Shown here in pieces: positions 21,937 to 22,344 of a stretch of 64,000 nt of DNA; position 1 is the stretch's first letter; each line of letters opens with the position of its first letter. Below the pieces are notes generated by a model. That model did not search any database. It was not told the DNA's origin and was given only the letters and a program-made list of their open reading frames with translations. Origin of the DNA: Candidatus Moraniibacteriota bacterium (lineage in GTDB: Bacteria; Patescibacteriota; Minisyncoccia; Moranbacterales; UBA2206). The stretch covers positions 1,267 through 65,266 of the forward strand of contig JAPLXG010000013.1 in assembly GCA_026396175.1 (NCBI GenBank), in the 5' to 3' direction. A program made the translations under genes and the position numbers.

Positions 21937-22236
21937 TTAGCAAACGCAGGTCGCGTCTCCTAGCTTAAACTCCTTGCGATCAGCAAATTCTTCCTGCTTG
22001 CCGCCATTCCATTGCGCCACTGGGCGGATGTAACCAACCACGCGAGAATAGACTTCAGTTCTTTGAAAATTGCGCAGCACTGGATCCGCTTCGTGGCAAC
22101 TTTTGCACTTGCAAAACTCACCGCTCTCCACTACATAGTTCATATATTCTTCATTTTTCTTGAGCTCCCGGCCACAATCGTGGCATATTTGTTTTTGCAT
22201 ATTGGTTTTTATCCCCCACCACTTTTTCGCTCGCAT
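21937..22236 (-). CDS. Small zinc-ribbon plus glycyl-radical-loop protein, a paralog of the NrdD C-terminus (candidate stand-alone glycyl radical spare part)
   Basis: 99 aa. The last 33 aa (TEVYSRVVGYIRPVAQWNGGKQEEFADRKEFK) are nearly identical to the NrdD C-terminus and include the RVVGY glycyl radical motif. Nucleotide identity is about 90% between 21950-22080 and 22360-22470. It has its own CxxC...CxCxxC ribbon. Confidence 0.6.
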   Translation of the reverse strand: MRAKKWWGIKTNMQKQICHDCGRELKKNEEYMNYVVESGEFCKCKSCHEADPVLRNFQRTEVYSRVVGYIRPVAQWNGGKQEEFADRKEFKLGDATCVC

Positions 22237-22344
22237 TCGCGATAGGGATGAGGAATATTTTTGTTTAATAATTATATTAATTACTAAAATAATTTGTTAG
22301 CTAGAAATTTGTTTTAAAAGCGAAAAAGTGGTGGGGGATGAATT

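Follow-up and report, generated by a model that had tools for sequence, protein, structure and literature searches.

A stand-alone NrdD-type glycyl-radical protein encoded between nrdD and nrdG is a candidate spare part for class III ribonucleotide reductase

Oxygen destroys every glycyl-radical enzyme by the same route, and the locus described here raises the question of whether an enzyme other than pyruvate formate-lyase (PFL) may be served by a small protein that replaces its cleaved radical domain. The window, a 64,000-nt stretch of a Candidatus Moraniibacteriota genome (contig JAPLXG010000013.1, positions 1,267 to 65,266), carries on its minus strand a gene for a protein of 87 residues, hereafter the mini-protein, between the genes for the catalytic subunit (nrdD) and the activating enzyme (nrdG) of a class III ribonucleotide reductase (RNR). 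We propose, at a probability of roughly 60%, that the mini-protein is a spare, exchangeable radical module comparable to GrcA, which would re-arm a class III RNR whose tail has been cleaved by oxygen. The genes in question, in their minus-strand order, are as follows:

24749-25198, minus strand: nrdR, the repressor gene (Pfam Zn_ribbon_NrdR and ATP-cone), first gene of the conserved array
22345-24606, minus strand: nrdD, class III RNR catalytic subunit, 753 aa
22435-22437, minus strand: codon of the NrdD radical glycine
21937-22200, minus strand: mini-protein gene (87 codons and a stop), encoding a self-standing glycyl-radical domain of the NrdD type
20982-21686, minus strand: nrdG, radical S-adenosylmethionine (SAM) activating enzyme (TIGR02495 NrdG2; Radical_SAM and Fer4_12)

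The position of the mini-protein gene between nrdD and nrdG, as given by a first-pass annotation made from the letters alone, was confirmed by Pfam and NCBIfam matches to both flanking genes: the window NrdD matches Pfam NRDD over positions 1-562 (E=3e-194) together with an ATP-cone and scores 1075 bits on NF006126, and NrdG scores 212 bits on TIGR02495 (cut-off 131) and is presumed to be the activase of both NrdD and the mini-protein. From its N-terminus, NrdD comprises a Lys-rich, low-complexity extension of about 48 residues (residues 1-48, 24463-24606; MAQNKKKKGEKKKVSLK...) ahead of the ATP-cone, a barrel bearing an RSMCCRLR thiyl loop, a CPVHG...CPKC ribbon and an intact glycine loop. NrdD was the sole ribonucleotide reductase seen in the loci examined, many of which derive from bacteria of the Candidate Phyla Radiation (CPR).

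The mini-protein gene had initially been read as an open reading frame (ORF) of 99 aa ending with TEVYSRVVGYIRPVAQWNGGKQEEFADRKEFK. This ORF (21937-22236, minus strand) is present and contains TEVYSRVVGYIRPVAQWNGGKQEEFADRKEFK near its end, but eight further residues, LGDATCVC, come after it, and because homologues begin at MQKQ or MEK translation almost certainly begins at the ATG at 22200, giving 87 aa. The remainder of the longer ORF is probably not translated:

22201-22236, minus strand: upstream in-frame extension of 12 codons, supplied by the 3' arm of an inserted hairpin

Against Pfam NRDD (PF13597) the mini-protein matches only positions 502-562 of 562 (E=2e-13, 50 bits; cut-off 26), and on the NrdD model TIGR02487 it reaches 37 bits versus a cut-off of 326, the ten-stranded barrel, the thiyl-cysteine loop and the substrate and effector sites not being covered. 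Scans of Pfam and NCBIfam at E≤0.01 returned NrdD models only and no Gly_radical or GrcA model, and neither Pfam, NCBIfam nor PHROGs holds a model dedicated to the mini-protein family. Alignment of 45 homologues revealed an NrdD-like ribbon followed by a glycyl-radical loop, with the four ribbon cysteines (C6, C9, C32 and C35) and the radical glycine (G56) invariant, as are H7, D8, K31, E49, Y51, S52, R53, Y57, I58, R59, P60, Q63, W64, N65, K68, E71, D74 and R75. The four Cys codons lie within 22096-22185, and the ribbon half (CHDC...CKSC) is, as the first-pass annotation had it, a real zinc-ribbon sequence distinct from that of NrdD; SRVVGY occupies residues 52-57 and the G56 codon 22033-22035. 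The C-terminal tail, ...GDATCVC (21937-21960), has a Cys at position 85 that is at least 90% conserved in nrdD-linked members among these homologues.

Comparison with the C-terminal domain of NrdD, known from the T4, T. maritima and P. copri structures, gave the same order of Cys pair, Cys pair, glycine loop and helix, and 31 of 32 loop residues are identical to those of the resident NrdD. The mini-protein differs from that domain in being a separate polypeptide with an extra Cys tail, in its ribbon (CHDC-x22-CxxC versus CPVHG-x9-CPKC in the resident NrdD) and in the linker from ribbon to loop, which has 13 residues with a conserved DPxLxNF motif versus 5 in the resident enzyme. A read-through fusion of the two proteins was considered and ruled out, as the spacing differs and the genes are out of frame in the closest relative (locus L006).

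Judged by its sequence, the mini-protein is one of many stand-alone NrdD-type radical domains, which together make up a large family without a name. A collection of 5.8 billion proteins yielded 631 matches, of which the 120 listed are all of 80-113 aa and come mostly from metagenome-assembled genomes (MAGs) of Moranbacteria, Parcubacteria and Paceibacteria, while a profile search of 1.84 billion representatives at 50% identity returned 454 matches at E≤1e-10, the best 150 of which are all of 42-159 aa, none of them a full NrdD. A Desulfobacterota subfamily of 111-135 aa contributes about 700 further matches, which are monocistronic and have no conserved neighbours. The family signature, C-H-D-C ... 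K-C-x-x-C ... L-x-N-F/Y ... EVYSRVVGY(I/L)RP..QWN.GK..EF..R in proteins of about 45-160 aa, is fitted by the window mini-protein, and its CHDC-type ribbon is common to the aligned stand-alone members across several phyla and predicted phages. Many database entries for these proteins are misnamed: homologues are called either ‘hypothetical protein' or, wrongly, ‘anaerobic ribonucleoside-triphosphate reductase'.

The gene is real and maintained. Absence from relatives, or frameshifts and stops in orthologues, had been named at the outset as signs of a decaying duplication; the 631 homologues and the substitution pattern gave neither sign. Between the mini-protein and its L006 counterpart, synonymous divergence (dS) is saturated (1.3) and non-synonymous divergence (dN) is 0.037, giving a dN/dS of 0.03 (0.025 for the ribbon half and 0.044 for nrdD), which places the whole gene under strong purifying selection. 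Furthermore, the co-occurrence of nrdD, mini-protein gene and nrdG, which the first-pass annotation had proposed to look for, was found in independent genomes with the same order nrdR-nrdD-mini-nrdG (L001, L003, L006 and others).

The tail of the mini-protein gene had been described as about 90% identical in nucleotides to that of nrdD, which holds over 101 nt. The two copies form an in-frame direct repeat of 90% identity and lie 402 nt apart:

21965-22065, minus strand: gene-conversion tract, copy 1 (mini-protein gene), encoding the glycyl-radical loop and the following helix
22367-22467, minus strand: gene-conversion tract, copy 2 (nrdD 3' end), 101 nt

Nine of the ten differences are synonymous and one is non-synonymous (96 nt compared), and dS between the two tails of the window (0.65) is below that between orthologues (1.0-1.3). 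Within single genomes, the 99-nt tails of nrdD and the mini-protein gene are 72-94% identical, with third-codon-position identities ranging from 0.39 to 0.91: these are high in L003 (0.91), L009 and L016 (both 0.88), L013 and L021 (both 0.82), low in L010 (0.39), L007 (0.42) and L001 (0.52), and 0.70 in the window, while the best orthologous values between species-level loci are 0.68-0.86. Because the within-window dS is lower than the orthologous dS and the changes are nearly all synonymous, we interpret the 90% identity as episodic gene conversion of a short tract, with selection continuing on both copies, so that the loop evolves in concert with the NrdD tail. Of the two origins first offered for the copy, recent or homogenised, only the second stands. 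A recent duplication of the nrdD tail is ruled out by the cross-phylum family signature and by the saturated dS against the nearest orthologue; since the stand-alone members have a common signature, from which the resident NrdD departs in its ribbon and its shorter linker, the mini-protein is instead an old paralogue of the NrdD C-terminal domain. As a separate observation, recombination between the two in-frame repeats would delete the mini-protein gene and leave NrdD with the mini-protein's Cys tail, and NrdDs that end in such tails (...ACESC in L016, ...PAYC in L152 and ...CQCR in L064) may be products of this kind.

In all, 169 cellular loci (L001-L169) and the window itself were sorted by a script that used phmmer with window-derived queries and a glycine-loop pattern. 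In type A, comprising the window and about 20 loci, an NrdD with its own loop is followed by the mini-protein gene and nrdG. In type B (n=9; L008, L014, L015, L017, L018, L019, L020, L090 and L097), the NrdD ORF has no internal stops, ends just past its own ribbon, lacks the glycine loop and is followed by a normal mini-protein gene; the mini-protein is then the only carrier of RVVGY. These NrdDs are complete in seven loci (about 690-775 aa), whereas in L020 and L097 the contig ends within the ORF; nrdG follows the mini-protein gene in seven of the nine, and decayed remnants of the loop can still be read in some NrdDs (CPKCVIEQKTEVFLKVGEE... in L019 and ...STVYLKVVMAD in L018, TEVFLKVGEE also being of this kind). 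In type Bt, seen in some CPR genomes, NrdD likewise stops after the ribbon, and a separate ORF of 45-54 aa with its own ATG encodes the glycine loop only, just before nrdG:

L058:3971-4108 (Dojkabacteria): type Bt peptide ORF
L158:2983-3123: type Bt peptide ORF
L057:3983-4147: type Bt peptide ORF

Similar tiny glycine-loop ORFs occur in L147 and L150. At 45-54 aa, the type Bt product may be the smallest glycyl-radical protein on record.

When NrdD sequences were placed on a neighbour-joining tree, it divided the type B members into two separate groups inside the window's clade, so that this state arose at least twice. The opposite loss is seen in L037, which has a single-chain NrdD, sister to the group of L007, L006 and the window, and has lost the mini-protein. 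As some loci have lost the NrdD loop and L037 the mini-protein, the two radical loops evidently look interchangeable, either having been lost where the other was kept; this reciprocal loss matches functional interchangeability, whereas a decoy function or a role in regulation alone would hardly account for it.

We infer that NrdG activates the mini-protein, that the latter docks in trans and that oxygen damage is the physiological trigger; the proposed events would run as follows. Transcription from a promoter upstream of nrdR would co-express the mini-protein with nrdD and nrdG, and NrdG would abstract a hydrogen atom from Gly56, installing a glycyl radical as it does on NrdD. The activated mini-protein would insert its glycine finger in trans into the NrdD barrel, beside the thiyl-radical cysteine, its target being an NrdD whose own finger was cleaved by oxygen or, in type B and Bt genomes, never existed; the radical would then pass to the thiyl cysteine and catalysis would resume. 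The cell would in this way replace an 87-residue cofactor protein rather than a 753-residue enzyme, as GrcA/YfiD does for PFL. Action in trans is supported by the loop-less NrdDs, by the loss of the mini-protein in L037 and by two further contexts of the family, namely the neighbourhoods of PerR, superoxide dismutase and rubrerythrin genes and the predicted phage copies. The spare-part proposal also draws on the breadth of the family, the purifying selection on the whole gene, the recurring gene order, the split-off type Bt peptides and the match, genome by genome, between the mini-protein tail and that of the resident NrdD.

The first of these contexts involves subfamilies that do not lie next to nrdD. 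A Fur-family gene is found immediately upstream of the mini-protein gene in 15 loci, and the downstream genes encode an Fe/Mn superoxide dismutase (8 loci), a rubrerythrin (5) or a desulfoferrodoxin (2), with hemerythrin and Rrf2 genes also occurring; overall, one of the first three types of gene follows the mini-protein gene in roughly half of the loci with the PerR-like regulator. The Fur-family neighbours score 85-103 bits on PerR models versus 38-52 bits on Fur models, both below the equivalog cut-offs, and their neighbourhoods suggest peroxide-responsive expression of the radical module:

L038:3601-5104, L110:2561-3913, L108:94-1613, L027:3971-5262 and others: clusters of PerR-like regulator, mini-protein and stress gene in other CPR lineages

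The second context comprises 26 predicted viral IMG/VR contigs (among L170-L222) that encode full-length stand-alone members; on none of the 26 does nrdD or nrdG occur within 3 kb of the mini-protein gene. Neighbours on the viral contigs include an SbcC-like protein (phrog_77, E=7e-67), an SbcD-like protein, a peptide deformylase and an endolysin-like protein:

L172:3001-3261: example of a mini-protein gene on a predicted viral contig
L183:2983-3291: example of a mini-protein gene on a predicted viral contig

A second candidate in L183 was rejected as a false positive, a KH-like protein containing RIVGY.

The structure of the mini-protein was modelled with AF2 from the 45-sequence alignment, resulting in a mean predicted local distance difference test score (pLDDT) of 65, about 80 in the ribbon half. 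For residues 49-60 the model shows a beta-hairpin whose turn, between its two strands, holds Gly56, and for residues 61-71 a helix, both at pLDDT 50-59; the C-terminal tail fell below 50. A hairpin of such low confidence would suit, if weakly, a glycine finger that becomes ordered only on docking into a barrel or an activase. Foldseek searches of the Protein Data Bank (PDB) with this model (mean pLDDT 65) retrieved generic zinc-ribbon ribosomal proteins only (E>0.05), and a profile search of the PDB sequences with the mini-protein gave no match at E<0.01; the tail of T. maritima NrdD came up at E 0.2 only. The solved NrdDs closest to the window enzyme are those of P. copri (8p23) and T. maritima (4coi).

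Several observations weigh against the spare-part proposal. As the glycine loop of the window NrdD is perfect, basal activity does not require the mini-protein, whose role could be regulatory; its ribbon and 13-residue linker are unlike those of NrdD, and docking would set a second ribbon beside the one retained on the cleaved enzyme; and a pure spare-part model offers no use for the conserved Cys tail. In addition, the stress neighbourhoods are confined to subfamilies other than the nrdD-linked one, the IMG/VR contigs may include misclassified cellular DNA, the truncated NrdDs come from MAGs, and the fold and PDB searches lent the proposal no independent support. With regard to the truncated NrdDs, an assembly artefact is argued against by the same truncated ends being present in related type B loci (L008, L014, L090 and L018; L017 and L020).

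The alternative that survives best, although we consider it unlikely, makes the mini-protein a constitutive second subunit, the main radical-bearing half of a two-piece RNR even in the window; on this doubtful account the mini-protein would be easier for NrdG to activate than a flip-out domain, and NrdD's own tail would serve as a back-up. It draws on the lineages whose radical is carried solely by the mini-protein or by a 45-aa peptide and on the place of the gene in the core operon just upstream of nrdG, whereas every type A locus retains a perfectly conserved NrdD loop under purifying selection and the close relative L037 has lost the mini-protein without loss of NrdD.

A role as a decoy or radical sink, competing for NrdG or soaking up radicals such that fewer NrdD molecules are activated and cleaved under oxygen, appears distinctly improbable; in a variant of this idea the mini-protein could tune NrdG activity. 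It would agree with the retention of everything that NrdG should recognise and with the PerR-type stress operons of other subfamilies, yet it gives no account of genomes in which a long, intact but loop-less NrdD lies beside the mini-protein gene and nrdG, and the concerted evolution with the NrdD tail fits a docking site in common as well as an activase in common.

The Cys tail invites a further reading. The window NrdD and all relatives examined have an RSMCCRLR thiyl loop; T. maritima NrdD has an SCCR loop, compared with MGCR in T4 (PMC4493059), and because the RSMCCRLR loop is of the T. maritima type the window enzyme is probably a redoxin-dependent, NrdD2-like enzyme. A C-terminal Cys or Cys-Cys tail is specific to nrdD-linked mini-proteins and rare in single-chain NrdDs, and given the MCCR active-site loop it may be redox-active or metal-binding. 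Taken further, the mini-protein would act as a redox shuttle, perhaps besides carrying the radical, with its Cys or Cys-Cys tail reducing the active-site disulfide of the enzyme in a manner resembling the C-terminal cysteine pair of class I and II RNRs. We regard this as very improbable: the conservation of Cys 85 and the T. maritima-type loop in all these NrdDs speak for it, but many of the Fur-linked, Desulfobacterota and phage members lack the tail, others end in one Cys only, and the tail is modelled at a pLDDT below 50.

A decaying or accidental duplicate of the nrdD 3' end without function, for which the 101-nt direct repeat beside the parent gene could be cited, deserves practically no credence in view of hundreds of intact orthologues, a dN/dS of 0.03 with saturated dS, invariant residues, a family-specific ribbon conserved across phyla and genomes with loop-less NrdDs whose sole radical carrier is the mini-protein.

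The spare-part proposal can be set against the known systems. Like the mini-protein, GrcA/YfiD of E. coli is a small stand-alone protein that duplicates the C-terminal radical domain of its glycyl-radical enzyme; an R-V-x-G-Y loop near the C-terminus is present in the two, and both are presumably activated by the activase of the parent enzyme, which for the mini-protein is suggested by the adjacency of nrdG and the identical loop; the logic, replacement of an oxygen-cleaved C-terminus, would be the same by analogy, and other mini-protein subfamilies are stress-linked. The two are not members of one family: GrcA/YfiD belongs to IPR011140 and PF01228, whereas the mini-protein matches Pfam NRDD and has no sequence relationship to it, and the resemblance is one of convergence. 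They also differ in the N-terminal half, predicted to be a folded four-Cys zinc ribbon in the mini-protein and a disordered segment in GrcA, and in the partner, which would be a class III RNR instead of PFL. Unlike GrcA, the mini-protein alone supplies the radical loop in some lineages, and in the window it is encoded inside the enzyme-activase operon.

Split RNR genes offer another comparison, as in Aeromonas phage Aeh1, in which nrdA is split by a homing endonuclease. As in such splits, RNR catalytic function in types B and Bt would come from two polypeptides, but no mobile-element split is seen here and the window has a complete NrdD plus a separate module. The predicted viral members have a counterpart in T4 Y06I, a GrcA homologue (PMC13450708, PMC8683613): both are phage-borne stand-alone radical domains, Y06I being PFL-type and the IMG/VR proteins NrdD-type, with the viral assignment of the latter predicted.

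The first-pass statement that rescue of the GrcA type has been characterised for PFL only agrees with papers of 2021 and 2026, according to which YfiD and Y06I, both serving PFL, are the only validated spare parts (2026 review, PMC13450708). The review names the formate lyases as the sole class with spare-part proteins and leaves the existence of such proteins for other glycyl-radical enzymes undetermined; in the full-text literature, subscription-only literature being outside the scope, no description of an NrdD-type spare part was found. We would give about an even chance to the wider claim that the mini-proteins of CPR bacteria, Desulfobacterota and phages form a large unrecognised family containing the first spare part outside PFL, that several lineages use it in a two-piece RNR with an exchangeable radical protein of 45 to about 100 residues, and that the Cys tail may have a redox role.

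CPR bacteria have been reported in groundwater both with and without oxygen (PMC8672522). If the spare-part proposal is true, cheap re-arming of NrdD would help explain how they sustain their supply of DNA precursors. Within the family, one enzyme exists in natural one-piece-plus-spare, two-piece and 45-aa-peptide forms, the mini-protein could serve as a minimal substrate for studying target activation by NrdG, and the question of spare parts beyond PFL becomes directly testable.

The remaining features of the locus are largely inverted repeats:

22208-22342, no strand assigned: inserted hairpin repeat with arms 22208-22231 and 22319-22342, between the nrdD stop and the mini-protein start
21716-21872, no strand assigned: second inserted repeat element, between the mini-protein stop and nrdG, with another copy at 12524-12767
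21887-21920, minus strand: hairpin directly after the mini-protein stop, terminator-like with a weak T tail, kept in L006, where it lies directly before the nrdG start
2345-2481, 12524-12767, 21716-21872, 22208-22342, 45288-45544, 56107-56332 and 63364-63529: long-range inverted repeats

The first-pass annotation had reported a 20-bp inverted repeat bracketing the spacer between nrdD and the mini-protein gene. The repeat is real and has 24-nt arms that are 96% complementary with an AT-rich loop of 87 nt between them (-46.6 kcal/mol as RNA, z=-8.4), but a link to the nrd system did not hold. Both inserted elements are absent from L006, which has 37 nt from the nrdD stop to the mini-protein ATG and about 60 nt from the mini-protein gene to nrdG; a part in the nrd system is ruled out by this absence, by the copy at 12.5 kb of the downstream element and by the similar long hairpins of the window, which number at least nine and whose AT-rich loops measure 74-221 nt. 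The hairpin at 22208-22342 is thus a lineage-specific insertion of a genome-wide hairpin repeat. Its 3' arm pairs over GGUGGGGGA, about 9 nt ahead of the mini-protein AUG, and such pairing, as predicted, could affect translation of the mini-protein, the only possible local effect of the hairpin. The conserved hairpin at 21887-21920 could be an attenuator or processing site between the mini-protein gene and nrdG. An Rfam search of 20.5-25.6 kb found no real family, the two inserted hairpins giving sub-threshold matches resembling microRNA precursors.

A candidate promoter for the operon lies upstream of nrdR:

25215-25269, minus strand: candidate operon promoter and box, TTGTCA-16-TATAAT at 25269-25242 (11 of 12 matches, with a TG extension)

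An NrdR-box-like palindrome, ACACTATATGTAGTAT, is situated at 25215-25230, downstream of this promoter; both are consensus matches only, and the box pattern is not enriched across the window. Beyond nrdG, the minus strand continues with a YdjC-like gene and a PMT_2 glycosyltransferase gene.

The long-range inverted repeats resemble miniature inverted-repeat transposable elements (MITEs) or repetitive extragenic palindromic (REP) hairpin elements, at least one family having a copy at 12.5 kb and another at 21.7 kb. Six sites in the window (9923, 12660, 16353, 47853, 56109 and 56311) carry the 20-bp palindrome CCTGCCTACCGGCAGGCAGG versus zero expected, and a related hairpin is found at about 24715-24740, between nrdR and nrdD. 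Insertions in the 16S rRNA gene are typical of CPR bacteria; that of the window (48196-50129) spans 1934 nt versus a 1533-position model, corresponding to about 400 nt of insertions, and contains inverted repeats at 48556-48754 and 49925-50064.

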